Below are positions 1 to 37,188 of a stretch of DNA of 39,283 bases, piece by piece (positions within the stretch are counted from its first letter, which is position 1; each line of letters starts with the position of its first letter). Origin of the DNA: Escherichia phage Carena; the sequence record OR769031.1; one strand, 5' to 3'. The notes under the pieces are model-generated. The model saw nothing but the letters and a program-made list of their open reading frames with translations, did not search any database and was not told where the DNA came from. The translations under genes and the position numbers were made by a program.

Positions 1-207
1 ATGTTGTCTTTAGATTTTAACAACGAGGTAGTGAAGGCTGCTCCGATTGTAGGTACAGGTGTAGCCGACGGTGCTGCCCGTCTGTTCTTCGGACTGTCCC
101 TTAACGAGTGGTTCTATGTAGCCGCAATTGCCTACACAGTGGCTCAAATTGGTGCCAAGGTAGTCGATGTGATTATCAAATGGAAGAAGGAGGGTAAAGA
201 TGTCTAA
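1..207 (+). CDS. 17.5: Class II holin (T7 gp17.5-like), 68 aa
   Basis: ORF starts at window position 1; AAGGAGG at 39272-39278 gives 5-nt spacing across the wrap; hydrophobic core and basic C-terminus; close match to recalled T7 gp17.5 (MLSLDFNNE...AAPIVGTGVAD...). Confidence 0.9.
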   Translation: MLSLDFNNEVVKAAPIVGTGVADGAARLFFGLSLNEWFYVAAIAYTVAQIGAKVVDVIIKWKKEGKDV

Positions 208-1012: not shown

Positions 1013-1240
1013 ATGGCTACTACAAACTCAAGAACCAGCACACTCTGGACCATCAATGGTCGCTCACCAGATAGCCGTGATGTGTATGACCGCAACAATA
1101 TTGGTCTTCGTGTTGGGCGTATCGACATCCCAGCTTCCGTTATGTTCCAACCTAGTGACATCGACGTGGCTGTATCTAAGACCGACACTATCAAGGCTCT
1201 TGAGAAGCGCATCGCTGACTTAGAGAAATCTGCCAAGTAA
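1013..1240 (+). CDS. Hypothetical protein, 75 aa, between spanin and terminase large subunit
   Basis: AGGAG 7 nt upstream of ATG; starts 2 nt after Rz stop; no TM or signal peptide; C-terminal amphipathic/coiled-coil segment (IKALEKRIADLEKSAK). No counterpart at this junction in T7 as I recall it. Confidence 0.6.
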   Translation: MATTNSRTSTLWTINGRSPDSRDVYDRNNIGLRVGRIDIPASVMFQPSDIDVAVSKTDTIKALEKRIADLEKSAK

Positions 1241-1255
1241 CAATAGGAGGCCACA

Positions 1256-3013
1256 ATGTCTACTCAAGCAAACAAGAATGCGCTCATCGTGGCGCAACTT
1301 AAGGGTGACTTCGTGGCCTTCCTGTTCGTCTTATGGAAGGCTCTGAACTTACCTAAACCAACCAAGTGTCAGATTGATATGGCACGTACACTCGCTAACG
1401 GCGACCACAAGAAGTTTATCCTTCAGGCGTTCCGTGGTATCGGCAAGTCCTTTATCACCTGTGCGTTCGTCGTGTGGGTCTTATGGCGTGACCCTCAACT
1501 TAAGGTGCTCATTGTGTCTGCCTCTAAGGAACGTGCGGACGCTAACTCCATCTTCATCAAGAACATCATCGACCTCTTACCGTTCCTCTCTGAGTTGAAA
1601 CCTCGACCGGGACAGCGAGACTCCGTGATTAGCTTCGATGTGGGATTGGCTAAACCAGACCACTCTCCCTCTGTTAAGTCTGTAGGTATCACTGGTCAGT
1701 TGACTGGTAGCCGTGCTGACATCATCATCGCAGATGACGTTGAGGTTCCTGGTAATAGCTCTACGAGTTCTGCCCGTGAGAAGCTCTGGACGTTGGTAAC
1801 TGAGTTTGCTGCACTACTTAAGCCGCTGCCTACCTCTCGTGTTATCTACCTTGGCACACCTCAAACCGAGATGACGCTCTACAAGGAACTTGAGGATAAC
1901 AAAGGGTACAGCACAGTAATCTGGCCAGCACAGTATCCTCGCAATGATGCTGAGGCTCTCTACTATGGGGACCGCTTGGCTCCGATGCTTAAGGCTGAAT
2001 ACGATGAAGGCTATGAGTTACTTCGTGGTCAACCTACTGACCCTGTTCGATTCGACATGGATGACCTCCGTGAACGTGAACTCGAATACGGTAAAGCTGG
2101 CTACACGCTTCAGTTCATGCTTAACCCAAACCTTAGTGATGCCGAGAAGTACCCGCTACGACTCCGTGACGCTATCGTGTGCGCTGTGGACCCTGAACGT
2201 GCCCCATTGTCTTACCAGTGGTTGCCGAACCGTCAGAACCGCAATGAGGAACTCCCTAACGTTGGTCTGAAGGGTGATGACATCCATAGCTTCCATACGT
2301 GCTCTTCTAGAACCGCTGAGTACCAGTCTAAGATTCTCGTCATTGACCCTAGTGGTCGTGGTAAGGATGAGACCGGGTATGCAGTCCTCTACTCACTGAA
2401 CGGTTACATCTACCTGATGGAAGTAGGAGGGTTCCGTGGTGGCTACGATGATGCTACCCTAGAGAAGCTCGCTAAGAAGGCCAAGCAGTGGAAGGTACAG
2501 ACAGTCGTCCATGAGTCCAACTTCGGTGACGGTATGTTCGGTAAGATTTTCTCTCCGATTCTCCTGAAGCACCATAAGTGTGCCTTAGAGGAAATCCGTG
2601 CTAAGGGCATGAAGGAGATGCGAATCTGCGATACTATCGAGCCATTGATGGGTGCACACAAGCTGGTCATTCGTGATGAGGTTATCCGTGAGGACTATCA
2701 GACTGCTCGTGACCTTGATGGGAAACATGATGTCCGCTACAGTGCGTTCTATCAGATGACCCGTATGACCCGTGAGCGAGGCGCTGTGGCACACGATGAC
2801 CGCATTGATGCTATCGCATTGGGTATCGAGTTCCTTCGTGAAGGGATGCTTGTGGATAGCCGTGTAGGTGAAGAAGAGATGACCCTTGAGTTCCTTGAAC
2901 ATCACATGGAGAAACAGACCATTGGTGGTGATGCTATTCATAGCTACGAGGCTGGTGGCGTGGACATCTACTACGAGGATGATGGAGACTCTAGCTGCTT
3001 CATTGAGTGGTAA
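1256..3013 (+). CDS. 19: Terminase large subunit / DNA maturation protein B (gp19), 585 aa
   Basis: SD AGGAGG; near-identical N-terminus to recalled T7 gp19 ([30 protein letters not shown]); ATPase and nuclease regions conserved. Confidence 0.97.
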
Positions 3014-3100: not shown

Positions 3101-3123
3101 TAATACGACTCACTATTGGGAAG
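3101..3123 (+). promoter_or_regulatory. Phage RNAP promoter (phiOR-like)
   Basis: TAATACGACTCACTATTGGGAAG; 22/23 identical to T7 class III consensus; same position as T7 phiOR upstream of gene 19.5. Confidence 0.8.
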
Positions 3124-3503: not shown

Positions 3504-3521
3504 GAGAGAGAGAGAGAGAGA
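3504..3521. repeat. (GA)9 dinucleotide tract
   Basis: gagagagagagagagaga read directly, immediately after the inverted repeat. Confidence 0.9.
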
Positions 3522-3552
3522 CGCTAACAATGGTCATCTTCTCTTTATGTCT

Positions 3553-3572
3553 ACTATAAGAGACTATAAGAC
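3553..3572 (+). repeat. Tandem decamer ACTATAAGAG / ACTATAAGAC
   Basis: Direct repeat, followed by ACTTAAAGAGAGG; same motif family as 3138-3157. Confidence 0.5.
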
Positions 3573-3611
3573 CACTTAAAGAGAGGCTTTAAGATTATTT
3601 GAGATTGAGTG

Positions 3612-3640
3612 TTGACATTGATAATGGCTTATGAGACTAT
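3612..3640 (+). promoter_or_regulatory. Host sigma70 early promoter (A1-like)
   Basis: TTGACA, 17-nt spacer, GACTAT; first of four evenly spaced TTGAC(A/T) elements upstream of gene 0.3. Confidence 0.55.
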
Positions 3641-6170: not shown

Positions 6171-8822
6171 ATGACTAACGTAATCAACGCACCAAAGAAC
6201 GACTTCTCTGACATCGCTAACGCAATCATGCCGTACAACATTCTGGCTGACCACTACGGTGCACACCTTGCAGCTACGCAGTTACAGCTTGAGCACGAAG
6301 CGCACACTGAGGGTGAGAAGCGTTTTCTTAAGGCAATGGAACGTCAAATCAAAGCGGGTGAGTTCGGCGATAACGCAGTGGCTAAACCTCTCCTGTCATC
6401 CCTCGCACCAAAGTTTATCGAGGCGTGGAACACTTGGTTCACTGAAGTGGAAGCGAAGCGTGGCAAGCGTCCAGTGGCCTACAATCTGGTACAGAAGGTT
6501 GCACCTGAAGCTGCGGCATTCATCACACTGAAGGTCACACTGGCTTGCTTGACCAAAGAGGAATACACGAACCTTCAATCGGTCGCCACTAAGATTGGTC
6601 GTAGCATTGAAGATGAACTGCGTTTTGGTCGCATCCGTGACGAAGAAGCGAAGCACTTTAAGAACCATGTACAGGAGGCACTGAACAAGCGCGTTGGTAT
6701 CGTCTACAAGAAAGCATTCATGCAAGCCGTAGAGGGCAAGATGCTTGATGCTGGTCAACTGCAAACCAAGTGGACTACGTGGACACCTGAAGAATCAATC
6801 CACGTTGGAGTTCGCATGTTGGAACTGCTCATTGGGTCTACTGGTCTCGTTGAGTTACACAGACCGTTTGCTGGTAACGTTGAGAAGGATGGCGAGTACA
6901 TCCAGTTAACCGAGCAATACGTTGACCTGTTATCTAAACGTGCTGGCGCTCTGGCTGCGATTGCACCAATGTATCAACCTTGTGTAGTCCCTCCGAAGCC
7001 TTGGACTTCTCCGGTTGGCGGTGGCTATTGGGCGGCTGGTCGCAAGCCTCTCTCTCTGGTTCGTACTGGTTCCAAGAAGGGACTTGAGCGTTACAACGAT
7101 GTGTATATGCCTGAAGTCTACAAGGCGGTGAACATCGCACAGAATACTCCTTGGAAGATTAACAAGAAGGTTCTGGCAGTGGTCAACGAGATTGTGAACT
7201 GGAAGCATTGCCCGGTTGAAGATGTACCCGCTCTGGAACGTGGTGAACTCCCGGTCAAACCTGAAGACATCGACACCAACGAAGCGGCACTCAAAGCGTG
7301 GAAGAAAGCGGCCTCCGCAATCTACCGCAAAGAGAAGGCTCGCGTGTCTCGTCGCATGAGCATGGAGTTCATGTTAGGTCAGGCCAATAAGTTCGCACAG
7401 TTTAAAGCTATCTGGTTCCCAATGAACATGGACTGGCGCGGTCGTGTGTATGCGGTCCCTATGTTTAACCCGCAAGGCAACGACATGACTAAAGGTCTGT
7501 TAACGCTCGCTAAAGGTAAACCGATTGGTGTCGATGGGTACTACTGGCTGAAGATTCACGGTGCTAACACTGCTGGTGTGGACAAGGTGGACTTCGCAGA
7601 ACGCATCAAGTTCATTGATGACAACCACGAGAACATCATGAGCGTAGCGGCTGACCCAATTGCTAACACTTGGTGGGCTGAACAAGACTCCCCGTTCTGC
7701 TTCCTCGCGTTCTGCTTTGAGTATGCGGGAGTCCAGCACCACGGGATGAACTACAACTGCTCTCTGCCGCTGGCGTTCGATGGCTCTTGCTCTGGTATTC
7801 AGCACTTCTCCGCGATGCTCCGCGATGAGGTTGGCGGTCGTGCGGTTAACCTGCTGCCGAGCAAGGAAGTACAGGACATCTACCGCATCGTTGCTGAACG
7901 TGTGAACGAAATCCTGAACCAAGATGTTATCAACGGGACCGACAACGAAGTAGAGACCGTGACCAACAAGGACACAGGGGAAATCACCGAGAAGCTCAAG
8001 CTGGGTACTAAAGAACTAGCTGGTCAGTGGCTGGCCTACGGTGTGACTCGCAAGGTCACTAAACGTTCAGTCATGACGTTGGCTTACGGTTCCAAAGAGT
8101 ACGGATTCCGTGACCAAGTTCTTGAGGACACCATTCAGCCAGCTATCGACGATGGTAAAGGCTTGATGTTCACTCAACCGAACCAAGCGGCTGGCTATAT
8201 GGCTAAACTGATTTGGGACGCTGTAACGGTGACTGTGGTCGCTGCGGTTGAAGCAATGAACTGGCTGAAGTCTGCTGCTAAACTGCTGGCTGCTGAAGTC
8301 AAGGACAAGAAGACCAAAGAGGTTCTGCGCAAACGCTGTGCGGTACATTGGGTAACTCCTGATGGCTTCCCGGTCTGGCAGGAATATAAGAAGCCAGTAC
8401 AGACCCGCTTGAACCTGATGTTCTTAGGTCAGATTCGTTTGCAGCCTACCGTGAACACCAACAAGGATAGCGGCATTGATGCACGTAAGCAGGAGTCAGG
8501 TATCGCACCTAACTTTGTTCACTCAATGGATGGAAGCCACCTGCGAATGACTGTAGTGCGCTCCTATGAGGTCTACGGTGTGGAATCCTTCGCACTGATT
8601 CATGACTCATTTGGTACTATCCCGGCTGATGCTGGCAACCTGTTCAAAGCTGTACGTGAAACGATGGTGAACACCTATGAAGAAAACGATGTACTTGCAG
8701 ACTTCTATGAGCAATTTGCTGACCAGTTGCACGAATCACAGCTTGACAAGATGCCTGAGATGCCAGCTAAGGGTTCTCTGGACCTGCAAGAAATCCTTAA
8801 GTCAGACTTTGCGTTTGCCTAA
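6171..8822 (+). CDS. 1: Single-subunit DNA-dependent RNA polymerase (gp1), 883 aa
   Basis: Same length as T7 RNAP; catalytic and specificity-loop regions conserved (RLNLMFLGQ.RLQPT with Asn at the T7 N748-equivalent codon 8412-8414; HDSFGT). Confidence 0.98.
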   Translation: MTNVINAPKNDFSDIANAIMPYNILADHYGAHLAATQLQLEHEAHTEGEKRFLKAMERQIKAGEFGDNAVAKPLLSSLAPKFIEAWNTWFTEVEAKRGKRPVAYNLVQKVAPEAAAFITLKVTLACLTKEEYTNLQSVATKIGRSIEDELRFGRIRDEEAKHFKNHVQEALNKRVGIVYKKAFMQAVEGKMLDAGQLQTKWTTWTPEESIHVGVRMLELLIGSTGLVELHRPFAGNVEKDGEYIQLTEQYVDLLSKRAGALAAIAPMYQPCVVPPKPWTSPVGGGYWAAGRKPLSLVRTGSKKGLERYNDVYMPEVYKAVNIAQNTPWKINKKVLAVVNEIVNWKHCPVEDVPALERGELPVKPEDIDTNEAALKAWKKAASAIYRKEKARVSRRMSMEFMLGQANKFAQFKAIWFPMNMDWRGRVYAVPMFNPQGNDMTKGLLTLAKGKPIGVDGYYWLKIHGANTAGVDKVDFAERIKFIDDNHENIMSVAADPIANTWWAEQDSPFCFLAFCFEYAGVQHHGMNYNCSLPLAFDGSCSGIQHFSAMLRDEVGGRAVNLLPSKEVQDIYRIVAERVNEILNQDVINGTDNEVETVTNKDTGEITEKLKLGTKELAGQWLAYGVTRKVTKRSVMTLAYGSKEYGFRDQVLEDTIQPAIDDGKGLMFTQPNQAAGYMAKLIWDAVTVTVVAAVEAMNWLKSAAKLLAAEVKDKKTKEVLRKRCAVHWVTPDGFPVWQEYKKPVQTRLNLMFLGQIRLQPTVNTNKDSGIDARKQESGIAPNFVHSMDGSHLRMTVVRSYEVYGVESFALIHDSFGTIPADAGNLFKAVRETMVNTYEENDVLADFYEQFADQLHESQLDKMPEMPAKGSLDLQEILKSDFAFA

Positions 8823-8829
8823 CGGAATC

Positions 8830-8852
8830 TAATACGACTCACTATTGGGAGA
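8830..8852 (+). promoter_or_regulatory. Phage RNAP promoter (phi1.1A-like)
   Basis: TAATACGACTCACTATTGGGAGA. Confidence 0.85.
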
Positions 8853-8911: not shown

Positions 8912-9481
8912 ATGTTTACTTTCATTGCAACCACTACCGCTATCATCTCCACCACACTGGCTATCGTCTTCCTCAAGACTGGTAAGCAAGTCAATGACCA
9001 ACTCAATGCAGCCTATAAGGAACGTAAAGTTCTCAAAGAGAATCTGGCTGAAGGTCATAGTGAACTGGCATCCATGCGCAATTACATTGAGAGATACAAG
9101 CGAGAGACTGAGAGCGACATGAAGTTTGAAAGTGAGCGCACCAAGGCAATCATCACAGACCATGTGAACCGCAACAAGGAACTGAGAGAGCACATTAAGG
9201 AGTTAGAGAAGTTCCGCGATGGCATCCTGTTTAGTGACATCACGTCTATCAAGTTTACTGCTCACATCCCGGATGCTGGATGGAAGCGCACTGAGTTCAA
9301 GCTAGGCATAGGGTCTTGTGGCAAAGAGGTTACATGTTTGCACTGGAAAGAACAGTCGGACCGTTACCTGCTGACACAGACATGCACTGATGGTGAGCGC
9401 AAAGAGTTCACCTATTATAAGAAAGACGTAGCGGGTCGCATTGAGATTGCACGTAAGGTTGCAGACAATACGACTCACTAA
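8912..9481 (+). CDS. Hypothetical membrane-anchored protein in the gene 1.05 slot, 189 aa
   Basis: SD and phi1.1A upstream; N-terminal TM helix (FTFIATTTAIISTTLAIVFL), long charged coiled-coil, Cys-containing C-terminal domain; not present in T7. Confidence 0.8.
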   Translation: MFTFIATTTAIISTTLAIVFLKTGKQVNDQLNAAYKERKVLKENLAEGHSELASMRNYIERYKRETESDMKFESERTKAIITDHVNRNKELREHIKELEKFRDGILFSDITSIKFTAHIPDAGWKRTEFKLGIGSCGKEVTCLHWKEQSDRYLLTQTCTDGERKEFTYYKKDVAGRIEIARKVADNTTH

Positions 9482-9488
9482 TGGGAAA
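9466..9488 (+). promoter_or_regulatory. Phage RNAP promoter (phi1.1B-like)
   Basis: CAATACGACTCACTAATGGGAAA; overlaps the last four codons and stop of the upstream ORF. Confidence 0.8.
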
Positions 9489-9720: not shown

Positions 9721-9992
9721 TGGGTCGCTTATACAGTGGTAACTTAATGGCATACAAAGACGCTATCGAACGACTCAAAGAAGACCACGATGTGAGTGTG
9801 GTCGTTGAGACTTTCCGCTATGAGAACTATGCGAGGATGCGATGGGTATCCGGTGAGACTCTTCGAGTGGTCTTACGGAATGGCTTAGTGTTAACCTCTA
9901 AGTGTTTCGAACAGGACGATGAAGACGTTCGCTGCAATGCACAGACTGAATGGCTTCGTAAGGTACACAGTGACCTGAAGCACTGGAAGTAA
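9720..9992 (+). CDS. 1.2: gp1.2-like (host dGTPase inhibitor family), 90 aa
   Basis: Starts MGRLYSGNL and ends DLKHWK like T7 gp1.2 (MGRLYSGNL...LKDWK); TAATG overlap with gene 1.1 stop. Confidence 0.85.
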   Translation: MGRLYSGNLMAYKDAIERLKEDHDVSVVVETFRYENYARMRWVSGETLRVVLRNGLVLTSKCFEQDDEDVRCNAQTEWLRKVHSDLKHWK

Positions 9993-10012
9993 TACGACTC
10001 ACTATTGCGAGA
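9990..10012 (+). promoter_or_regulatory. Phage RNAP promoter (phi1.3-like)
   Basis: TAATACGACTCACTATTGCGAGA (C at +2); its first TAA is the gene 1.2 stop codon. Confidence 0.8.
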
Positions 10013-11190: not shown

Positions 11191-11225
11191 GGTCAGTCCT
11201 TAGCGGGGCTGGCCTTTTGCGTTTC
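11191..11225 (+). terminator. Candidate early terminator (TE-like)
   Basis: GGUCAG/CUGGCC 6-bp stem (one G-U) followed by UUUUGCGUUUC; same location and U-rich tail (..GGCCTTT.TGCGTTT.TATA) as recalled T7 TE. Confidence 0.4.
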
Positions 11226-11247
11226 TATACGACTCACTATGGAGGAA
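11225..11247 (+). promoter_or_regulatory. Degenerate phage RNAP promoter (phi1.5-like)
   Basis: CTATACGACTCACTATGGAGGAA; -13..-3 core intact, -17/-16 and -1 deviate; GGAGGA doubles as SD. Confidence 0.45.
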
Positions 11248-11254
11248 CAACCTC

Positions 11255-11335
11255 ATGCTATTTCTAATTGTCGCTGTAATTGTTGCCACATTTGCTTTCG
11301 TTGTCATTGACGACAATTGCTGGCCTGATTGCTAA
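11255..11335 (+). CDS. Small hydrophobic peptide (gp1.5-like), 26 aa
   Basis: SD GGAGGA 8 nt upstream; hydrophobic core plus acidic/Cys tail, pattern like T7 gp1.5; not in track. Confidence 0.45.
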   Translation: MLFLIVAVIVATFAFVVIDDNCWPDC

Positions 11336-11355
11336 TACGACTCACACATGGAGGA
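11333..11355 (+). promoter_or_regulatory. Degenerate phage RNAP promoter (phi1.6-like)
   Basis: TAATACGACTCACACATGGAGGA; -17..-5 perfect, -4..-1 altered (ACAT instead of TATT). Confidence 0.5.
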
Positions 11356-12088: not shown

Positions 12089-12276
12089 GCAACTTAAACA
12101 AAGGGTCACTTGTAAACGGTGACAAGAAGTTCTTCGCAACGGTCGAAGGCCAAGGCCAATCGTTCGAAGTCCCTGTGTTCGCTGCGTCTCTTGAAGAGGC
12201 CAACGAGTTAGCTGAGTGGCAATATGTCCCGGCTGGCTTCGCAGTGACACGCATCCGTCCAGACCGAAAGGTTTAA
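12085..12276 (+). CDS. 2: Host RNA polymerase inhibitor Gp2, 63 aa
   Basis: ATGA overlap with 1.8 stop; MSNLNKGSL...FEVP...[14 protein letters not shown] matches T7 Gp2. Confidence 0.9.
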
Positions 12277-12296
12277 TAGGACTCACTATTGGGAGA
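12274..12296 (+). promoter_or_regulatory. Phage RNAP promoter (phi2.5-like)
   Basis: TAATAGGACTCACTATTGGGAGA; first TAA is the gene 2 stop codon. Confidence 0.8.
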
Positions 12297-13945: not shown

Positions 13946-14038
13946 ATGATGATTATCCACGAGATGGGTCTATACGATTTGGCTTATCGCTTGGCATTCC
14001 TGCTGGCAATGGTCTACATTCTGACCCGCAAGGATTAA
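13946..14038 (+). CDS. Small hydrophobic peptide, 30 aa
   Basis: ATG 5 nt after gene 3.5 stop; single predicted TM segment; stop codon is the TAA of the following promoter; not in track; no strong SD. Confidence 0.35.
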   Translation: MMIIHEMGLYDLAYRLAFLLAMVYILTRKD

Positions 14039-14058
14039 TAGAACTCACTATGGGAGGA
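14036..14058 (+). promoter_or_regulatory. Phage RNAP promoter (phi3.8-like)
   Basis: TAATAGAACTCACTATGGGAGGA. Confidence 0.65.
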
Positions 14059-16056: not shown

Positions 16057-16058
<2 letters not shown>

Positions 16059-16079
16059 ATACGACTCACTAATGGGACA
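16057..16079 (+). promoter_or_regulatory. Phage RNAP promoter (phi4.3-like)
   Basis: AAATACGACTCACTAATGGGACA. Confidence 0.75.
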
Positions 16080-16887: not shown

Positions 16888-16910
16888 CTATTCAACTCAC
16901 TAATGGGAGA
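16888..16910 (+). promoter_or_regulatory. Degenerate phage RNAP promoter (phi4.7-like)
   Basis: CTATTCAACTCACTAATGGGAGA; A instead of G at -11, deviant -17..-12. Confidence 0.5.
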
Positions 16911-17347: not shown

Positions 17348-19462
17348 ATGTTACTATCCGACTTAGAAGCAAACGGGTTGCTGCACAATGTTAGTCAATT
17401 TCACTGTGCGGTGACTTACGACTACACAACTGACAAGTACATCCGTTATCGACCTGATGACTTTGGGGCATACATTGATGCACTCGAAGCTGAGGTTGCT
17501 CGCGGTGGTCTCATTGTGTTTCACAACGGGCATAAGTATGACGTTCCGGTTATCGAGAAGCTGGCAAAGCTGATCCTTAATCGTGACGTTAAGTTCCCGA
17601 AAGAGAACGTCTTGGACACCTTAGTGATGTCCCGACTGATTTACTCTAACATCAAAGACACCGATGCTGGTCTGCTCCGTGCTGGCAAGCTACCGGGACA
17701 ACGCTTTGGGTCTCACGCTCTGGAAGCATGGGGCTACCGCTTAGGTGAAATGAAGGGTGAGTACAAGGACGACTTTAAGAAGTCACTGGAAGAGTCTGGT
17801 GATGAATACGAAGACGGGATGGAGTGGCTGTTCTTCAATGAAGACATGATGGAATATAACGTTCAAGACGTTGTAGTCACCAAGGCACTCTTTGAGAAAC
17901 TGTGTAGTAACACTTTCTATTTCCCTAACGAGACACCCGCTGGAAGCACAGAAGCAGACCGTTTCTGGAATGGTAGCATTGAGGCTGTCAAACTGGAACA
18001 TGATGCTGCATGGTTGTTAGCTAAGATGGAACGTAATGGTTTCCCGATTGATATTAAGTCTCTTGAGAACCTCTATGCTGAACTGGCTGGTAGACGTGGT
18101 GAGCTACTCGTAGAGTTAACCAATACGTTTGGCTCATGGTACTCCGCTAAGGGCGGTACTGAAGCATTCAGGCATCCTCGTACCGGAAAGCCGCTCACCA
18201 AGTATCCTCGTGTGAAGTATCCGAAACAGGGTGGCATCTTTAAGAAGCCAAAGAACAAGAAGCAACGTGAAGGTCTGGAACCTTGTGAACTGGACACTCG
18301 TGATTATGTAGAGGGCGCTCCGTATACGCCTGTAGAGCACGTTGTGTTTAACCCTGCAAGTCGTGAACACATCACTCGTGTGCTTACCAAAGCTGGCTGG
18401 GTGCCCGTTGAGTTCACTCCTAGTGGTGCACCAAAGGTAGACGATGAGGTATTGGAACACGTTAAGGTAGACGACCCGGATGCACAGCGTTGCATTGAGT
18501 TGATTAAAGAATACCTTATGATTCAGAAACGTATCGGTCAGGTTGCTGAAGGTGATAACGGCTGGCTCCGAATGATTGGAGACGATGGTCGTATTCACGG
18601 TAGCGTTAACCCGAACGGTGCGGTAACTGGACGTGCAACTCATAGTTTCCCTAACGTGGCACAGGTGCCTTCAATCCGTGCTGCATATGGTGAACCTTGC
18701 CGTGCTGCTTTCGGTGCCGAGCACAACATGAAAGACGGTAAGCCAGACCCTTGGGTTCAAGTTGGTGTGGATGCGTCCGGCCTTGAGCTACGATGCTTGG
18801 GTCACTTCATGTATCGCTATGATGAGGGAGAGTACGTTGAGACCATCCTCACTGGTGACATCCATACGAAGAACCAATTGGCTGCTGGTCTGCCGACTCG
18901 TGACAACGCTAAGACGTTTATCTACGGGTTCCTCTATGGTGCTGGGGCTGCGAAGATTGGACAGATTGTTGGTGGCACTGCCGAAGATGGTAAGCGACTC
19001 ATCAAGAACTTCCTTGAGCAAACTCCGGCTATCGCTGCGTTGCGTGAAGCAATCACAGGTACACTCGTCAAGGACTCTAAGTGGGTTGGCGGTGAACAGA
19101 AAGTAACTTGGAAACGCCGTTGGGTTCGTGGCTTGGATGGTCGTAAAGTACACGTCCGTAGTCCCCACGCTGCGTTGAACACCTTGTTGCAATCTGCGGG
19201 TGCTCTGATTTGTAAACTGTGGATTGTCAAGACAGAAGAGATGCTCCTTGAGATGGGATACAAGCACGGCTGGGATGGTGACTTCTGCCTCATGGGGTGG
19301 ATACACGATGAGCAACAGCTTGCTTGCCGTACTGAAGAGATTGCCAAAGTTGTAATCGAAGTATCTCAACAGGCTATGCGCTGGGTTGGAGACCACTTTA
19401 ACTTCCGGTGCCAACTGGATACTGAAGGAAAGATGGGGCCGAATTGGGCTGTTTGTCACTAA
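17348..19462 (+). CDS. 5: DNA polymerase (family A, gp5), 704 aa
   Basis: Same length as T7 gp5; 3'-5' exonuclease and polymerase motifs conserved (VFHNGHKYDVPV, KTFIYGFLYGAG, HDE). Confidence 0.98.
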   Translation: MLLSDLEANGLLHNVSQFHCAVTYDYTTDKYIRYRPDDFGAYIDALEAEVARGGLIVFHNGHKYDVPVIEKLAKLILNRDVKFPKENVLDTLVMSRLIYSNIKDTDAGLLRAGKLPGQRFGSHALEAWGYRLGEMKGEYKDDFKKSLEESGDEYEDGMEWLFFNEDMMEYNVQDVVVTKALFEKLCSNTFYFPNETPAGSTEADRFWNGSIEAVKLEHDAAWLLAKMERNGFPIDIKSLENLYAELAGRRGELLVELTNTFGSWYSAKGGTEAFRHPRTGKPLTKYPRVKYPKQGGIFKKPKNKKQREGLEPCELDTRDYVEGAPYTPVEHVVFNPASREHITRVLTKAGWVPVEFTPSGAPKVDDEVLEHVKVDDPDAQRCIELIKEYLMIQKRIGQVAEGDNGWLRMIGDDGRIHGSVNPNGAVTGRATHSFPNVAQVPSIRAAYGEPCRAAFGAEHNMKDGKPDPWVQVGVDASGLELRCLGHFMYRYDEGEYVETILTGDIHTKNQLAAGLPTRDNAKTFIYGFLYGAGAAKIGQIVGGTAEDGKRLIKNFLEQTPAIAALREAITGTLVKDSKWVGGEQKVTWKRRWVRGLDGRKVHVRSPHAALNTLLQSAGALICKLWIVKTEEMLLEMGYKHGWDGDFCLMGWIHDEQQLACRTEEIAKVVIEVSQQAMRWVGDHFNFRCQLDTEGKMGPNWAVCH

Positions 19463-19472
19463 GGAGGTAACT

Positions 19473-19808
19473 ATGGGAGGCGTTGCTACGCTTAGGTTTC
19501 ACACTATGCCGACTGGCTGTATCGTCTGCGTCTCCCATAAGAGGAACAAAGATGGTTACTTCCGGTACAGCGTAGGGTCATCCAGAAAGGGTGAGAAGAT
19601 GGCGTTTATGTTCCACCGATTCGTGTGGGAGAACGTCAACGGAAAGATACCAGAAGGGTATGAGATAGACCATCTATGCCTAAACCGTGGGTGCTGTAAC
19701 GTAGAGCACCTACAGTGTATCCCCAAGCGGGAACATGTAATCAAGACTAACCGAGAGCGGAAGGTCATCACATTGAAAGCAAAGGAGAAATATCATGGCT
19801 ATTACTAA
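19473..19808 (+). CDS. HNH endonuclease, 111 aa (gene 5.3 slot)
   Basis: SD AAGGAGG 5 nt upstream; HNH signature EIDHLCLNRGCCNVEHLQ plus Cys pairs (CIVC). Confidence 0.8.
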   Translation: MGGVATLRFHTMPTGCIVCVSHKRNKDGYFRYSVGSSRKGEKMAFMFHRFVWENVNGKIPEGYEIDHLCLNRGCCNVEHLQCIPKREHVIKTNRERKVITLKAKEKYHGYY

Positions 19809-21299: not shown

Positions 21300-21322
21300 C
21301 AATACGACTCACTATGGGAGAG
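21300..21322 (+). promoter_or_regulatory. Phage RNAP promoter (phi6.5-like)
   Basis: CAATACGACTCACTATGGGAGAG. Confidence 0.7.
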
Positions 21323-22301: not shown

Positions 22302-23909
22302 ATGGCAAGCTCACAGAAACGTGAAGGCTTTGCGGAGAATGGTGCCAAGGCTGTGTATGACGCATTGAAGAACGACCGGAACTCCTATGAGACCCGTGCG
22401 GAAAACTGTGCGAAGTACACAATCCCCTCGTTGTTCCCTAAAGACTCCGACAACGCATCAACTGACTACACCACTCCGTGGCAAGCAGTAGGTGCTCGCG
22501 GTCTGAACAACTTGGCCTCTAAGCTCATGCTAGCTCTGTTCCCTATGCAGACTTGGATGAAGCTGACCATCTCTGAGTTCGAAGCGAAACAATTGGTTGC
22601 ACAACCTGCTGAACTGGCGAAGGTCGAAGAGGGTCTCTCAATGGTCGAGCGTATCTTGATGAACTACATCGAGTCAAACTCCTACCGTGTGACACTCTTT
22701 GAGACCCTGAAGCAGTTAATCGTGGCTGGTAACGCATTGCTCTACATCCCGGAACCTGAAGGTACTTACAATCCCATGAAGTTATACCGACTGTCTTCTT
22801 ATGTTGTCCAACGAGACGCATTCGGCACGGTATTACAGATTGTGACCTTGGATAAGACTGCTTATGCAGCGCTACCAGAAGACGTAAGGAACTCTCTGGA
22901 CTCCGGTACGGAACACAAAGGCGATGAAATGATTGACGTGTATACTCACATTTATCTCGATGAGGAATCAGGCGAATACCTGAAGTACGAAGAGATTGAT
23001 GGAGTCGAAGTTGATGGTACAGATGCTTCTTATCCGGTGGACGCTTGTCCTTATATCCCGGTTCGCATGGTACGCATTGATGGGGAATCATACGGTCGTT
23101 CATACTGCGAGGAATACTTGGGTGACTTACGTTCCCTTGAGAACCTTCAGGAAGCTATCGTCAAGATGTCCATGATTAGCGCAAAGGTTATCGGCTTGGT
23201 AAACCCTGCTGGTATCACACAGGTTCGCCGCTTGACCAAAGCGCAGACTGGTGACTTCGTGTCTGGTCGTCCAGAAGACATCTCGTTCCTGCAACTCGAA
23301 AAGGCTGCTGACTTCTCCGTGGCTCGTGCTGTGAGTGAACAGATTGAAGGCCGACTGTCCTATGCCTTTATGCTGAACTCCGCTGTGCAACGTACTGGTG
23401 AGCGTGTGACTGCCGAAGAGATTCGCTATGTTGCATCTGAACTCGAAGATACCCTTGGTGGTGTCTATTCGATTCTCTCACAGGAACTTCAGTTGCCAAT
23501 GGTTCGTGTCCTGCTGAAGCAACTTCAAGCGACCAATCAGATTCCTGAGTTACCGAAAGAGGCCGTTGAGCCTACTATCAGTACCGGGATGGAAGCATTG
23601 GGTCGTGGTCAAGACCTCGATAAGCTGGAACGCTGTATTGCTGCGTGGTCTGCTCTTGCTCCTATGCAGAATGACCCGGACATCAACATTGCGACCATTA
23701 AGTTGCGCATTGCGAACGCTATCGGCATCGACACTTCCGGTATCCTCAAGACACCTGAAGAGAAACAACAGGAAATGGCTGAGTCCGCTCAAGGTACTGC
23801 ACTGGAGAACGCTGCTGCGTCTGCTGGTGCTGGTGCTGGTGCACTGGCTACTGCAAGTCCTGAGAACATGCAAGCTGCTGCTGAACAGGCTGGTATGGTT
23901 CCCAATTAA
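22302..23909 (+). CDS. 8: Portal (head-to-tail connector) protein gp8, 535 aa
   Basis: Size and position as T7 gp8 (536 aa); SD AAGGAGG. Confidence 0.97.
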   Translation: MASSQKREGFAENGAKAVYDALKNDRNSYETRAENCAKYTIPSLFPKDSDNASTDYTTPWQAVGARGLNNLASKLMLALFPMQTWMKLTISEFEAKQLVAQPAELAKVEEGLSMVERILMNYIESNSYRVTLFETLKQLIVAGNALLYIPEPEGTYNPMKLYRLSSYVVQRDAFGTVLQIVTLDKTAYAALPEDVRNSLDSGTEHKGDEMIDVYTHIYLDEESGEYLKYEEIDGVEVDGTDASYPVDACPYIPVRMVRIDGESYGRSYCEEYLGDLRSLENLQEAIVKMSMISAKVIGLVNPAGITQVRRLTKAQTGDFVSGRPEDISFLQLEKAADFSVARAVSEQIEGRLSYAFMLNSAVQRTGERVTAEEIRYVASELEDTLGGVYSILSQELQLPMVRVLLKQLQATNQIPELPKEAVEPTISTGMEALGRGQDLDKLERCIAAWSALAPMQNDPDINIATIKLRIANAIGIDTSGILKTPEEKQQEMAESAQGTALENAAASAGAGAGALATASPENMQAAAEQAGMVPN

Positions 23910-23929
23910 TACGACTCACTAATGGGAGA
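23907..23929 (+). promoter_or_regulatory. Phage RNAP promoter (phi9-like)
   Basis: TAATACGACTCACTAATGGGAGA; first TAA is the gene 8 stop. Confidence 0.85.
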
Positions 23930-24899: not shown

Positions 24900-24922
24900 T
24901 AATACGACTCACTATTGGGAGA
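24900..24922 (+). promoter_or_regulatory. Phage RNAP promoter (phi10-like, capsid gene promoter)
   Basis: TAATACGACTCACTATTGGGAGA followed by a GGGAGA...TCTCCC 5' stem-loop and a 105-nt leader to gene 10. Confidence 0.9.
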
Positions 24923-26205: not shown

Positions 26206-26216
26206 TAACTATATGA

Positions 26217-26260
26217 AACCCCTTGGGTGCCTTCGCGGGTGCTTGAGGGGTTTTTTTTTT
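26217..26260 (+). terminator. T-phi-like late terminator
   Basis: CCCCTTGGGTGCC-TTCG-CGGGTGCTTGAGGGG followed by T10; closely resembles the recalled T7 T-phi sequence. Confidence 0.8.
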
Positions 26261-26267
26261 CGTACCA

Positions 26268-26290
26268 CTAATAGACTCACTAATGGGAGG
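26268..26290 (+). promoter_or_regulatory. Degenerate phage RNAP promoter (phi11-like)
   Basis: CTAATAGACTCACTAATGGGAGG; GACTCACTA core intact, upstream part shifted by 1 nt. Confidence 0.5.
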
Positions 26291-29323: not shown

Positions 29324-29346
29324 CAATACGACTCACTATTGGGAAG
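29324..29346 (+). promoter_or_regulatory. Phage RNAP promoter (phi13-like)
   Basis: CAATACGACTCACTATTGGGAAG; flanked by CCCCC / GGGGGG runs. Confidence 0.8.
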
Positions 29347-32712: not shown

Positions 32713-35700
32713 GTGGATAAGTATAACCCGAACGAACCGCATGAATATGATGCGTTATTTCAACAAGCTGCTGACACACATGGAGTCTCCTATGGCCTTC
32801 TTCGGAAGGTCGGTTGGGTAGAGTCCCGATTCAATCCGAAGGCCCAATCCAAAACCGGGCCACGGGGTGTTATGCAGTTCACTAAGGCAACTGGTCAGGC
32901 TTATGGCCTACTATCTGATGAGGACTTCAACGACCCGGCTAAGTCTATTGATGCTGGCGCTCGATACCTTGCAGACCTCGTTAAGAAGTACAATGGTGAC
33001 GAACTGAAAGCTGCCCTAGCGTACAACCAAGGTGAAGGCCATAATGGTAAGCCACAACTAGAAGCCTACGATTCCGGTAACTTTGCTGGGATTGGGGACG
33101 AAGGGCGAAACTATATCCGTTCACTTCTGGATGTCGCTAAGTCTCCTAAGAGTGGTGACATCGAGTCATTCGGTGGCATCACCCCAAAGGGTAAAGGGAT
33201 TCCGTTTGATGCTGCGATGAGCGGTATCGGGAAGAAAGGAAAGGTAACAACTGAACTCCCTGAGTCTCACTCAATGTCCTTTCAAGGTAAAGAACAGGCC
33301 GCTCCCAATCAGCCGTTCGGTAAAGACTATTGGGAAGCCAAAGGAACTACACTCGACGAAGCTAACGAGCGTTCAACCTTCTTCGGATTCGGTAATGCTG
33401 CTGAAGCAGAACTCTCCAACTCAACCTTGGGTGTGGCCTTCCGTGCTGGTAAGCGTGATAATGGTTTCGATGTTGTTACTGATGTACTTCAACCGACACG
33501 GTTTAACAGCCACATTTGGTCGCCTGAAGAACTCGAAAAGATTCGCAACGAAGTGAAGAACCCGGCGTACATGAACGTAGTGCTTGGAGGTTCCTCTGAG
33601 AATCTGGATGAACTCATCAAGTTAGCCAACGAGAACTATGAGTTGGACGCTAAGGCCGCTGATGCTGGACTTGGTGCGAAACTATCTGCTGGGATTATCG
33701 GTGCTGGTGTGGACCCTCTGACCTACGTTCCAATCGCTGGGACTGCGGCTAAAGGATTCAAACTGGTGAACAAGGCGCTGATTGTTGGCGCACAAGCAGG
33801 TGCTCTTAGCGTTGCCTCTGAGGGTCTGCGTACATCGGTGGCGGGTGGTGATGCTCACTACGCAGAAGCTGCCCTTGCTGGTATGCTGTTCGCTGGTGGA
33901 CTGACTGCTATCGCTGACGGTGTTGCCGCAGGTCTCCGTAAGTCTGGTGCTGAACAGATTGAGAACCCGTTTGCTGCTGCACAGATGCGCTTTGAGGCCC
34001 GTGAGACTGCCCGTAACACTGGTGGGCATGACGCAAGTCGAATGCCTCCTAGTGAAGACCGAGTGTTCTCACAGCACAACGGCGTTGAGTATTCACCTCT
34101 TGAGACCGAACCGGGTGCCGTAGTGTTGCGTGATGGTTCCATTATCAGTGACACCAACTTAGCTAACCCGATGACAGCCAAAGAGTTCGCCGAGGTGGAC
34201 CCTGAACGCGCTGCGTGGGGATTGCCTATGCGTGGACTGAGTGAAATCGGCTTGAGGACTTTACGCTCTGAACATGCCGAAATCCGTGGTCTCGCTAAGG
34301 ACTTAGTGCGTTCACCTACAGGGATGGAGTCTGGCTCACATGGTAAGTTCGGTGCTACCGCATCTGACATCAAAGAGCGACTGCACAGTACCAACCAGCG
34401 AACCTACAATGACCTCTATGCTGCAATGAAGGAAGCAATGGCTGACCCTGAGTGGTCCGTTGGTATGTTCAAGCGTAGTGCTCAAGGTGCCCGTCAGGAA
34501 ATCTATCGCCGTGCTGCTATCGCTATTGAGCGTCCAGAACTTCAAGCCAACTTAACGAAGGCTGAACGTAAGGTGATGGACATCATGAAGGAACACTTCG
34601 ACCTCAAGCGTGAGATGATGGAGAACCCGGCTATGTTCGGTAACAAGGCAACTTCCATCTTCCCTAACAGTCGTCACAAAGGGACTTACGTTCCTCATGT
34701 GTACTCACGGGAAGCCAAGCAGTTGTACGCACAGGCTCTTGGTGGTACTGACGGTTTACAGGAAGCTATTGCTGCAAGCTGGATGACATCGTACCGTTCA
34801 CGTCCTGAAGTTAAGGCCCGTGTGGATGAGATGCTGCTAGAGCAGTTACGGGCATCTCAACCATCAGGTAAGACTGCGGGTACTACACCTAATAAGCACT
34901 CTTCTGTAGACACAGCCAGTTACCAGATGAAACTGGACGATGCGGCTACACAGGCAAGTGATAAGGTAGCAGAACTAAAAGACGTACTTACCAACGCTGA
35001 GAAGCGAGTTGCGGACCGTGAAAGGAAACTCCAGAACTCCAAGGACAGACTGGCTTCGCATGAGGCTAAGCTGAAGGAGTTAGAAGAAAAACTAGCTGCT
35101 AAACCTAATAGCAAAACCATCCCTGTTAAGATTGAGAGCCGGAAGAAGATGATTGAGACCCAGAAGTCTCACGTCCGTGTTAACACAGATCGTCTCGACT
35201 ACATGAAAGGACAGGTTACTAAGGTCCAAGACAGAATCACCAAAGCCACCTCCGAAGCTGAAGAAGCCGCCTCTGCTGTCAAAGGTGCACAAGCTGCTCC
35301 GGCTAAACCTTCAGAGCGCCGGAAGTTTGACACAGACGAGAAGGTGGAACCAAATGTAGACGAAGAGGCTGTGCTTAGTCAGATGGCTGAGAAGTACGCT
35401 ATGGACAAGGCTTATGGCATTGCGAAGACCGATGAGTTCAACTCTTCAAGTGTCATCGACGATAACATTGAGGGTCTCGTAGGGATTGAGAACAACTCGT
35501 TCCTTGAAGCCCGTAACCTGTTCGACTCTGACATGCCAATCACCTTACCGAATGGACAACAGTTCTCTGTGAATGACCTCCGTGACTTCGATATGAAGCA
35601 TGTGATGCCAGCCTATGACCGCCGTATTGATGGTGACATCGCTATCATGGGAGGTACAGGAAAGACTACTGCTGAACTCAAGGATTCCATTATGGCTCTC

Positions 35701-37164
35701 GATAAGAAGTCTGAAGGCAAAGGCACAATGAAAGGTGAAGTGGAAGCACTCAAGGATACCGTTAAGATTCTCACAGGCCGTGCTCGACGCAATCAGGATA
35801 CTATGGGTGACACTATGGTTCGCGCTCTGTCCGATATGTCCTTCTTCACGAAGAACGCATACATGGGCTTGCAGAACCTAACTGAAATCTCTGGTATGTT
35901 GGCTAAGGGTAACGTTCGTGCGATGCTGCATGGTATTCCGGCACTGCGTGACTTAGCATTCCGCAACAAGCCAGTCTCCGGTAGTGAACTCAAAGAACTC
36001 CACTCCATGGTGTTTGGTAAAGAGTTCGACCAGTTAATCCGACCGACTCGTCAAGACATCATTCAGCGACTCCGTGAGTCCACTGATACACCTGATGTTG
36101 CAGCTAAGGTTGTTGGTACGGTTAAGCACACCACTCAAGAGTTGGCTGCTCGCTCTCCGTTCACTAAGTTCCTCAATGGTACTTCCAACTACATTCTGGA
36201 CATGGCCCGTCAAGGTGTCATGGGAGATGTGGTAACTCATGCCATTACTGGTAAGGGTGCCAACAAGTGGATTAAAGGCGACATGCTGAAATCTGCGAGT
36301 ATCTCTAAGGAACAGTGGGAAGGCATTCAGAACCTCATCCGTGAGAACGTCACTCAAGGTGCTGACGGCAAGTACACCTTCAAGGACAAGCGTAAGTTGG
36401 CTAATGACCCGCGAGCTATGGACCTGTGGCGACTGGCTGATAAGGTAGCTGATGAAACCATGCTGAGACCACACAAGGTGTCCTTACAGGATTCCCATGC
36501 GTTTGGCGCTGCTGCTAAGTTGGTCCTTCAGTTCAAGTCTTTCGTAATCAAGTCGATGAACTCTAAGTTTATCCGCTCCGGTAACGAAGCCTTTAAGAAC
36601 CATAGGGCTATGGATATGGCGCTAACCTACGCAATCTCTGGTGGAATTGCTGGTTCCTACTACGTGGCACAGGCCCACTTGAAGGCTGCTGGTCTACCTA
36701 AAGAGCAACAGAAGGACTACTTGAAGAAAGCTCTCGACCCTAAGATGATTGCCTACGCTGCGGCCTCCAGAAGTTCACACTTAGGGTCTCCGTTGAGTAT
36801 CGCTAACTTCGTTATGGGTGCTGCGGGTTATGACCAAGGTCTTATGGTTCGCTCTACGATTCTACCGAAAGGTGATGACAAGCGTGAGCGCAATAAGGCA
36901 GCGACTTCTCGTGACATGGGTGATTCAATTATGGGCGCTATTGGTGAACAGATTCCCGCTCTTGGCTTCGCTGGTGCTACTCTTGCTGCTGGTCGAAATG
37001 CTTATGGTGTCCTTACGGCTCCCAATAAAGTGACCGAGCGTGAGATGATGACTGGTCTGATGAATGCTCATCGTGAGATGGTTCCGAACGACCCAATCAC
37101 TCAACAGATGCTCATTAAGTTCTATGAGGCTAACGGTGTTCACCTTAAGTCTGACAAGAAGTAA
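32713..37164 (+). CDS. 16: Internal virion protein D with N-terminal lytic transglycosylase domain (gp16), 1483 aa, GTG start
   Basis: GTG start 6 nt after AGGAGG; N-terminus MDKY...GVSYGLLRKVGWVESRFNP.A.SKTGPRGVMQFTKATG (SLT motif, catalytic Glu) as in T7 gp16; about 165 aa longer than T7 gp16 because of an internal coiled-coil insertion. Confidence 0.95.
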   Translation: MDKYNPNEPHEYDALFQQAADTHGVSYGLLRKVGWVESRFNPKAQSKTGPRGVMQFTKATGQAYGLLSDEDFNDPAKSIDAGARYLADLVKKYNGDELKAALAYNQGEGHNGKPQLEAYDSGNFAGIGDEGRNYIRSLLDVAKSPKSGDIESFGGITPKGKGIPFDAAMSGIGKKGKVTTELPESHSMSFQGKEQAAPNQPFGKDYWEAKGTTLDEANERSTFFGFGNAAEAELSNSTLGVAFRAGKRDNGFDVVTDVLQPTRFNSHIWSPEELEKIRNEVKNPAYMNVVLGGSSENLDELIKLANENYELDAKAADAGLGAKLSAGIIGAGVDPLTYVPIAGTAAKGFKLVNKALIVGAQAGALSVASEGLRTSVAGGDAHYAEAALAGMLFAGGLTAIADGVAAGLRKSGAEQIENPFAAAQMRFEARETARNTGGHDASRMPPSEDRVFSQHNGVEYSPLETEPGAVVLRDGSIISDTNLANPMTAKEFAEVDPERAAWGLPMRGLSEIGLRTLRSEHAEIRGLAKDLVRSPTGMESGSHGKFGATASDIKERLHSTNQRTYNDLYAAMKEAMADPEWSVGMFKRSAQGARQEIYRRAAIAIERPELQANLTKAERKVMDIMKEHFDLKREMMENPAMFGNKATSIFPNSRHKGTYVPHVYSREAKQLYAQALGGTDGLQEAIAASWMTSYRSRPEVKARVDEMLLEQLRASQPSGKTAGTTPNKHSSVDTASYQMKLDDAATQASDKVAELKDVLTNAEKRVADRERKLQNSKDRLASHEAKLKELEEKLAAKPNSKTIPVKIESRKKMIETQKSHVRVNTDRLDYMKGQVTKVQDRITKATSEAEEAASAVKGAQAAPAKPSERRKFDTDEKVEPNVDEEAVLSQMAEKYAMDKAYGIAKTDEFNSSSVIDDNIEGLVGIENNSFLEARNLFDSDMPITLPNGQQFSVNDLRDFDMKHVMPAYDRRIDGDIAIMGGTGKTTAELKDSIMALDKKSEGKGTMKGEVEALKDTVKILTGRARRNQDTMGDTMVRALSDMSFFTKNAYMGLQNLTEISGMLAKGNVRAMLHGIPALRDLAFRNKPVSGSELKELHSMVFGKEFDQLIRPTRQDIIQRLRESTDTPDVAAKVVGTVKHTTQELAARSPFTKFLNGTSNYILDMARQGVMGDVVTHAITGKGANKWIKGDMLKSASISKEQWEGIQNLIRENVTQGADGKYTFKDKRKLANDPRAMDLWRLADKVADETMLRPHKVSLQDSHAFGAAAKLVLQFKSFVIKSMNSKFIRSGNEAFKNHRAMDMALTYAISGGIAGSYYVAQAHLKAAGLPKEQQKDYLKKALDPKMIAYAAASRSSHLGSPLSIANFVMGAAGYDQGLMVRSTILPKGDDKRERNKAATSRDMGDSIMGAIGEQIPALGFAGATLAAGRNAYGVLTAPNKVTEREMMTGLMNAHREMVPNDPITQQMLIKFYEANGVHLKSDKK

Positions 37165-37165
37165 T

Positions 37166-37188
37166 CAATACGACTCACTAATGGGAAG
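37166..37188 (+). promoter_or_regulatory. Phage RNAP promoter (phi17-like)
   Basis: CAATACGACTCACTAATGGGAAG followed by a GGGAAG...CTTCCC stem-loop. Confidence 0.85.

Follow-up and report, generated by a model that had tools for sequence, protein, structure and literature searches.

In vitro RNA production and orthogonal gene circuits both lean heavily on RNA polymerases of the T7 family, whose promoter specificity is normally credited to a specificity loop that reads promoter positions -12 to -8. Here we are concerned with one such enzyme, the product of gene 1 of Escherichia phage Carena (sequence record OR769031.1; the whole stretch analysed, 39,283 nucleotides in length, is referred to below as the window), and with the promoters it is predicted to use. 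Among the closest described systems, the record of phage BA14 (EU734171/NC_011040, 2008) annotates 16 promoters, namely phiOL, phi1.05, phi1.1, phi1.3, phi1.5, phi1.6, phi2.5, one upstream of gene 4, phi4.3, phi4.7, phi6.5, phi9, phi10, phi13, phi17 and phiOR. The FE44 record annotates this promoter type by PHIRE, and the promoters of Kvp1 and Berlin group together in published logos (PMC2579914). For Pectobacterium phage PP74, Curry et al. (2024; PMC11475235) describe a polymerase (R6), with the predicted promoter TAATACGACTCACTATTGGGAA, that is active both cell-free and as a purified enzyme; in the coupled cell-free assay it ranked first for activity among 26 enzymes, and after purification it gave ~61% of the mRNA yield of the commercial T7 enzyme. 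In a literature search that included the literal promoter sequence, we found no class member with published in vitro activity besides PP74. The promoter class has already been annotated (BA14, 2008) and assayed (PP74, 2024), and the polymerase and promoters of the window are not new.

Our best explanation of the window as a whole, in which we have high confidence, is that it represents a Berlinvirus genome in which the gene 1 polymerase serves 16 cognate promoters, that T at promoter position -1 has probably been selected, and that compatibility with the T7 system probably runs in one direction.

Gene 1 (6171..8822, plus strand) encodes a single-subunit T7-type RNA polymerase (RNAP) of 883 amino acids, as identified from its open reading frame, its identity to the T7 and BA14 enzymes, its Pfam domains and its match in the PDB. 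The product is 98.75% identical to BA14 gp1, which is of equal length, and 77% identical to T7 RNAP with one gap near residue 201, so that its numbering equals that of T7 RNAP from about residue 202 onwards. Both RNA_pol (PF00940; 373.7 bits, cut-off 22) and RPOL_N (PF14700; 78.3 bits, cut-off 30.1) scored above their curated cut-offs, and the best PDB match was T7 RNAP itself (1cez/1qln), to which residues 3-883 aligned full-length and colinearly with residues 2-883 at 1570.9 bits. The initial annotation of this DNA had placed the polymerase and its promoter family in the interval 6171-8852; gene 1 does lie there, but only one promoter (8830-8852) falls inside the interval, the other 15 being distributed across the genome.

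Alignment of eight polymerases (window, PP74, BA14, FE44, T7, T3, K11 and SP6) showed the catalytic and substrate residues D537, D812, K631, Y639 and H784 to be invariant columns. The residues expected to read the promoter bases could be taken directly from their codons: R746 is CGC at 8406-8408, N748 is AAC at 8412-8414, R756 is CGT at 8436-8438 and Q758 is CAG at 8442-8444. This bears out the earlier claim of Arg, Asn, Arg and Gln at these four positions, including the AAC codon; Asp or another residue at position 748 was looked for specifically in the careful alignment, and Asn was found. R746 is invariant among the eight enzymes, and residue 748 is D in T3 and K in K11, as expected given that the T3 and K11 promoters differ. 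Of the contacts made by T7 RNAP, N748 reads -10/-11, R756 reads -9 and Q758 reads -8 (summarized in PMC5937735). The specificity loop as a whole (residues 739-770; codons at 8385..8480, plus strand) has 28 of its 32 residues as in T7, the differences being I743V, F755I, I761V and E768G. Since the T3 and K11 promoters differ at -12 to -10, the window is clearly of the T7 recognition type and not of the T3 or K11 type.

The other two known promoter-contact elements could also be located by alignment to T7. The AT-rich recognition loop, residues 94-102 of the window polymerase and 93-101 of T7 RNAP (codons at 6450..6476, plus strand), conserves KRGKRP. The intercalating hairpin region (residues 230-245; codons at 6858..6905, plus strand) keeps V237 and matches T7 at only 8 of 16 residues (50%), making it the most diverged of the three elements. 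Relative to T7, the N-terminal domain is 64% identical, against 87-88% for palm and fingers. At 47 positions the four Berlin-type enzymes are fixed for a residue different from that in T7, T3 and K11; these positions include Y418M, F644Y, H772R, Q786M and most of the hairpin.

A mismatch scan located 16 promoter sites of 23 bp, all on the plus strand, and the same 16 were recovered by a log-odds matrix built from the sites, upholding the exact count given previously. With this matrix, applied to the window, BA14, Berlin and T7, the 16 sites scored 25.0-37.7 bits, and the next best position on either strand of the window scored 8.1 bits. The pattern TAATACGACTCACTAWTGGGAGA occurred 10 times with no more than three mismatches, again always on the plus strand, against an expectation of 0.00 in shuffled sequences. 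Applied to the T7 genome, the matrix returned all 17 annotated promoters and nothing else. The consensus of the window sites is TAATACGACTCACTA(T/A)TGGGAGA. Positions -10 to -5 (ACTCAC) are invariant in all 16, -11 is G in 14 and -12 is C in 13, so that -12 to -5 reads CGACTCAC, which places the promoters in the T7-specificity class and not in that of T3, K11 or SP6; with the T7-identical loop residues, this agrees with the earlier view that the polymerase residues fit G at -11 and A at -10. Position +1 is G in every site, and -2 is T in nine sites and A in seven. At -1 we found T in 13 of the 16, G in the three sites at 11225, 14036 and 21300, and A in none. The description of the family as T7-like with T at -1 and A or T at -2 therefore holds for most copies, although three carry G at -1, the site at 11333 departs from the consensus at -4/-3 (CACACATGG), and the upstream halves of the sites at 16888 and 26268 have diverged.

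The sites lie at gene-cluster boundaries, in intergenic or gene-end positions and in one orientation. Fifteen of the 16 coincide with promoters annotated in the BA14 record EU734171, and they are syntenic with T7 promoters as well. Some T7 promoters double as replication origins, which is a second role of a promoter and not an alternative to it. The idea that these 23-mers are instead non-promoter repeats, serving as replication, packaging or recombination sites, has to contend with their single orientation, their intergenic or gene-end placement and their synteny, one to one, with the annotated promoters of T7 and BA14; moreover, the PP74 polymerase transcribes from this sequence in vitro (PMC11475235). 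We regard that idea as effectively refuted. Judged by sequence, the 16 sites are promoters for the phage polymerase, with initiation at +1 predicted from relatives, and the in vitro activity of the PP74 enzyme means that the pairing of enzyme and promoter proposed for the window works in a near relative.

The individual sites, all on the plus strand and located by scan and by synteny with BA14 unless stated otherwise, run as follows. PhiOR (TAATACGACTCACTATTGGGAAG; 3101..3123) stands after gene 19 and is identical to the annotated phiOR of BA14. Phi1.05 (8830..8852), an exact match to the consensus, lies 8 nucleotides past the stop codon of gene 1, and phi1.1 (CAATACGACTCACTAATGGGAAA; 9466..9488) and phi1.3 (TAATACGACTCACTATTGCGAGA; 9990..10012) come after it. 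The ligase gene is followed by a stem-loop and T run resembling the early terminator TE (11191..11214, plus strand), at a place equivalent to that of the TE annotated in BA14, and then by phi1.5 (CTATACGACTCACTATGGAGGAA; 11225..11247), with G at -1, and phi1.6 (TAATACGACTCACACATGGAGGA; 11333..11355), the site that deviates at -4/-3. Phi2.5 (TAATAGGACTCACTATTGGGAGA; 12274..12296) precedes a promoter upstream of gene 4, in a 3.8-like position and with G at -1 (TAATAGAACTCACTATGGGAGGA; 14036..14058), which in turn precedes phi4.3 (AAATACGACTCACTAATGGGACA; 16057..16079) and phi4.7 (CTATTCAACTCACTAATGGGAGA; 16888..16910). Phi6.5 (CAATACGACTCACTATGGGAGAG; 21300..21322), identified by the scan and by comparison with its orthologues, carries G at -1 (TATGGGAGAG), a position at which BA14, Berlin and ErnstBeyeler show T. 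Phi9 (TAATACGACTCACTAATGGGAGA; 23907..23929) and phi10, the promoter of the capsid gene and a second exact match to the consensus (24900..24922), are followed, after gene 10, by a hairpin of 18 pairs and a T run resembling the late terminator Tphi (26215..26254, plus strand), recognized from the sequence. Directly after it and 8 nucleotides before gene 11 comes phi11 (CTAATAGACTCACTAATGGGAGG; 26268..26290), identified with the matrix and the weakest of the set (25.0 bits). It is absent in BA14 and Berlin and has degenerate forms in PP74 (22382) and ErnstBeyeler (26936); T3 has its own phi11 at the matching position. The last two sites are phi13 (CAATACGACTCACTATTGGGAAG; 29324..29346) and phi17 (CAATACGACTCACTAATGGGAAG; 37166..37188; scan and synteny), the latter 2 nucleotides past the stop codon of gene 16.

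By homology with T7, early transcription of gene 1 would fall to the host polymerase, working from sigma-70-type promoters that lie upstream of gene 0.3 and stopping at TE (11191-11214), after which the phage polymerase would take over and transcribe the remainder rightward, using its 16 cognate promoters of 23 bp. The enzyme is predicted to bind duplex DNA from -17 to -5, with the AT-rich loop on -17 to -13 and R746, N748, R756 and Q758 reading -11 to -7; all of these are as in T7, which would explain the T7-identical ACGACTCAC core of the promoters. The hairpin, with its conserved V237, would then open TA(T/A)T at -4 to -1, and transcription would start at the G of GGGAGA.

What sets these promoters apart from those of T7 is position -1, a base that may count for more than the initial annotation allowed. 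We counted this position in five Berlinvirus genomes (window, BA14, Berlin, PP74 and ErnstBeyeler) and found T in 65 of 74 promoters, G in nine, and neither A nor C in any. PP74 and ErnstBeyeler were scanned with a pattern that has WATW at -15 instead of TAAT, so that a single mismatch is built into each match and the weak promoters phi1.5, phi1.6 and phi4.7 were probably missed; the pattern leaves -1 unconstrained, so the counts at this position are unbiased. T7, by contrast, has A at -1 in 16 of its 17 promoters, the exception being phi2.5, which has T there and starts with A. Position -2 varies even among orthologues: phi1.3 and phi2.5 have TT in the window and Berlin and AT in BA14. The sole difference seen at -1 among orthologous promoters is the change from T to G in phi6.5 of the window. 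These patterns suggest that -1 is under constraint in Berlinvirus promoters, and conservation together with experiments on relatives indicates that T at -1 is probably a genus-wide signature that has been selected and is not neutral.

A different register could also account for the unusual -1 base. Transcription would then start one base off, for example at the -1 G of the TATGG variants or, in the TATTGGG sites, further downstream, and the T would be part of an initiation element with different spacing. Three sites do seem one base shorter (CACTATGGGAG), and in two promoters of this kind the BA14 annotators moved the frame by a base. Comparison of phi6.5 across genomes, however, points to substitution of T by G with no deletion (TT GGAGAG in Berlin, TG GGAGAG in the window), for which reason an origin of the CACTATGG variants by one-base deletion was also disfavoured, and +1 is G in 16 of 16 sites at T7 spacing. 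In the T7 family, furthermore, the choice of start site is set by the distance from the binding element. We consider a shifted register improbable, and continue with a start at the T7-spaced G and a probably selected T at -1.

How far the two systems can be exchanged depends on the direction considered. In T7-type promoters, -17 to -5 constitute the binding element and -4 to -1 the melting element, where substitutions affect initiation more than binding (PMC11617373); the initial annotation had likewise assigned -2 and -1 to the melting and not the recognition region, and had gone on to propose that the enzyme is probably cross-compatible with T7 promoters. For one direction there are data: T7 RNAP, assayed by Komura et al. 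(2018; PMC5937735, S2 file) on a barcoded library, gave an RNA/DNA ratio of 73.3 on TAATACGACTCACTATTGG, the variant with T at -1, and ratios of 188.2, 188.1, 176.5, 152.8 and 141.6 (mean 169) on five wild-type barcodes, which puts the TATTGG variant, from a single barcode, at ~43% of wild type. The same file contains TAATAGGACTCACTATTGG, identical to phi2.5 of the window from -17 to +2, with a ratio of 30.6. On these ratios T7 RNAP should read the window promoters at reduced strength, and we think that it probably uses them at reduced efficiency.

For the opposite direction, PMC11475235 reports no quantifiable expression by the PP74 polymerase when the promoter is non-cognate, 'even a single nucleotide change' sufficing, and a 2026 paper (PMC13600099) describes the BA14 polymerase/promoter system as functionally different from those of T7 and T3, citing cross-transcription by Mertens and Hausmann (1982). 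By analogy, the window polymerase probably uses T7 promoters, with their A at -1, poorly, so that of the earlier claim of cross-compatibility the part concerning T7 RNAP stands, whereas the reverse is contradicted by what is reported for PP74. Free interchange in both directions, with T at -1 neutral or merely a kinetic variation of the melting element, is the rival reading, and follows the cross-compatibility proposed in the initial annotation. It draws on the identity to T7 of the base-reading residues and of the -17 to -5 element, on the assignment of -4 to -1 to melting, on the activity of T7 RNAP on TATTGG together with the natural T at -1 of T7 phi2.5, and on the tolerance of G at -1 in three window sites. 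Set against it are the absence of A from -1 in all 74 sites although A and T replace each other freely at -2, the inactivity reported for the PP74 polymerase after a one-base promoter change, and the reported distinctness of BA14. We judge free interchange unlikely, and one-way compatibility, the likely arrangement by analogy with these relatives, is favoured over it.

Several points nevertheless weigh against a selected T and one-way compatibility. Since the five genomes are closely related, the 74 sites amount to far fewer than 74 independent observations, and since three window promoters have G at -1, the enzyme is not strictly dependent on T, if those sites are active. The start sites for this phage are assumed from T7 spacing. 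The figure for T7 RNAP on TATTGG comes from one barcode. That the one-base variant of PMC11475235 is the T7 promoter is our own inference, as the text leaves the promoter unnamed; of the promoters belonging to the functional enzymes and to the T7 control, that of T7 is the sole one-base neighbour. The specificity assay of PP74 was performed in a coupled reticulocyte system, and the result of Mertens and Hausmann (1982) is cited here through PMC13600099.

Should the enzyme truly discriminate at -1, the determinant would have to be sought elsewhere than in R746, N748, R756 and Q758. We tentatively propose, while thinking it more apt to fail than to hold, that this single melting-element base (T versus A at -1) is what lets Berlinvirus polymerases discriminate against T7 promoters, that it is read outside the specificity loop, and that the two systems form a natural one-way-orthogonal pair in which T7 RNAP reads both promoter types and the Berlin-type enzyme only its own. 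Candidate readers of -1 are the hairpin (residues 230-245, 50% identity), Y418M next to W422, H772R and Q786M. A role of W422 and Y418 near template position -1 is a lead only, a literature search on it having turned up nothing of use.

As judged from its nucleotide and protein matches, the window is the entire genome of a T7-like phage belonging to the genus Berlinvirus, in the group of BA14, Berlin, 285P and FE44. BA14 proteins mapped onto it by tblastn gave a complete colinear genome whose gene order agrees protein by protein. The Escherichia phages ErnstBeyeler and CarlSpitteler, both Berlinvirus, share ~94% nucleotide identity with the 25-kb window segment 9001-34000 across 95-96% of its length, and BA14 shares ~91% over 97% of it. 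In the gene 1 region the top database identity was 94.3%, to phages all of the BA14/285P/FE44 group, and at least 80% of this region was covered by 120 phage records, not every one a Berlinvirus; the matched phage records assign BA14-type relatives to Studiervirinae, genus Berlinvirus. Judged on the 25-kb segment, identity to these relatives is above the genome nucleotide identity of at least 70% that defines a genus for the ICTV, as quoted in PMC13600099. It is below the at least 95% that defines an existing species, the best match in INPHARED (August 2025) being ~94% over 96%. We place the window phage in a described genus, as a new member of roughly species rank.

The genome shows several further features. 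The record begins exactly at the holin gene (17.5; window 1-207), a circular permutation also seen in the ErnstBeyeler record of the BASEL collection, and its coordinates are consequently shifted by ~3 kb relative to the conventional T7 map. Between gene 19.5 and the early host-promoter region, window 3505-3629 has neither phiOL nor a counterpart of the BA14 terminal repeat: BA14 39475-39816 plus 195-477, which include phiOL at 353-375, are replaced by ~125 nucleotides. PhiOL is present in BA14, Berlin, PP74 and ErnstBeyeler, and its absence here, with that of the repeat, could reflect either a true deletion or a collapse of the assembly at the ends of the genome. Window 1013-1256, located between genes 18.5 and 19, has a counterpart to only the first 46 codons of a 185-amino-acid BA14 open reading frame, which looks like a deletion or replacement.

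Gene 16, encoding internal virion protein D (32713-37164), specifies 1483 amino acids, against 1315 in BA14, and is close in length to that of PP74 (1502); its tblastn segment, with one segment kept per query (-max_hsps 1), spans BA14 residues 1-712 only and is followed by a stretch rich in lysine, glutamate and alanine. A small open reading frame between the DNA polymerase gene (gene 5) and gene 5.5 (19386-19808) has an HNH-like motif (EIDHLCLNRGCCNVEHL) and weak similarity to BA14 gp2.8, and ErnstBeyeler carries an annotated putative homing endonuclease at the equivalent place. Most window proteins are 90-100% identical to their BA14 counterparts; the most diverged among those aligned over their full length are the gene 1.05 product (8912-9481, 57% identity) and the tail fibre gp17 (37236-39236, 75%), the divergence of the latter suggesting a different host range.

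In its polymerase, promoter consensus and promoter positions the window matches what has been deposited for BA14, Berlin, Kvp1, FE44 and PP74, and the biology is in that sense ordinary. The one thing of mild interest is whether one-way orthogonality to T7 comes from a single base of the melting region. Were -1 alone to make a Berlin-type enzyme reject the T7 promoter, this would constitute a second, little-studied layer of specificity and would offer a cheap route to near-orthogonal polymerase/promoter pairs; one-base promoter discrimination has in part been published already, with no mechanism given (Curry et al., 2024; PMC11475235).

Compared with known systems, the window is closest in its promoters to BA14, with which it has phi1.05, phi1.1, phi4.7, phi9, phi10, phi13 and phiOR identical base for base, as well as T at -1 and A or T at -2; it differs in having phi11 after Tphi, in lacking phiOL and in the G at -1 of phi6.5, which is T in BA14. 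PP74, likewise a Berlinvirus, has a polymerase 94% identical to that of the window, a specificity loop differing only at K740R and an equal promoter consensus, but its AT-rich loop reads AKSGPRP where that of the window reads AKRGKRP, and its host is another one. With T3 and K11 the window shares the polymerase family and the overall promoter architecture, whereas their promoters differ from those of the window at -12 to -10. T7 resembles the window in the fold and length of the polymerase, in its catalytic and base-reading residues and in the genome-wide layout of its promoters, and its class III promoter, TAATACGACTCACTATAGGGAGA, is identical to the window consensus at 22 of 23 positions; the differences lie in -1, which is A in 16 of 17 T7 promoters and T in 13 of 16 window promoters and never A, in the hairpin (50% identical) and in the N-terminal domain (64%).

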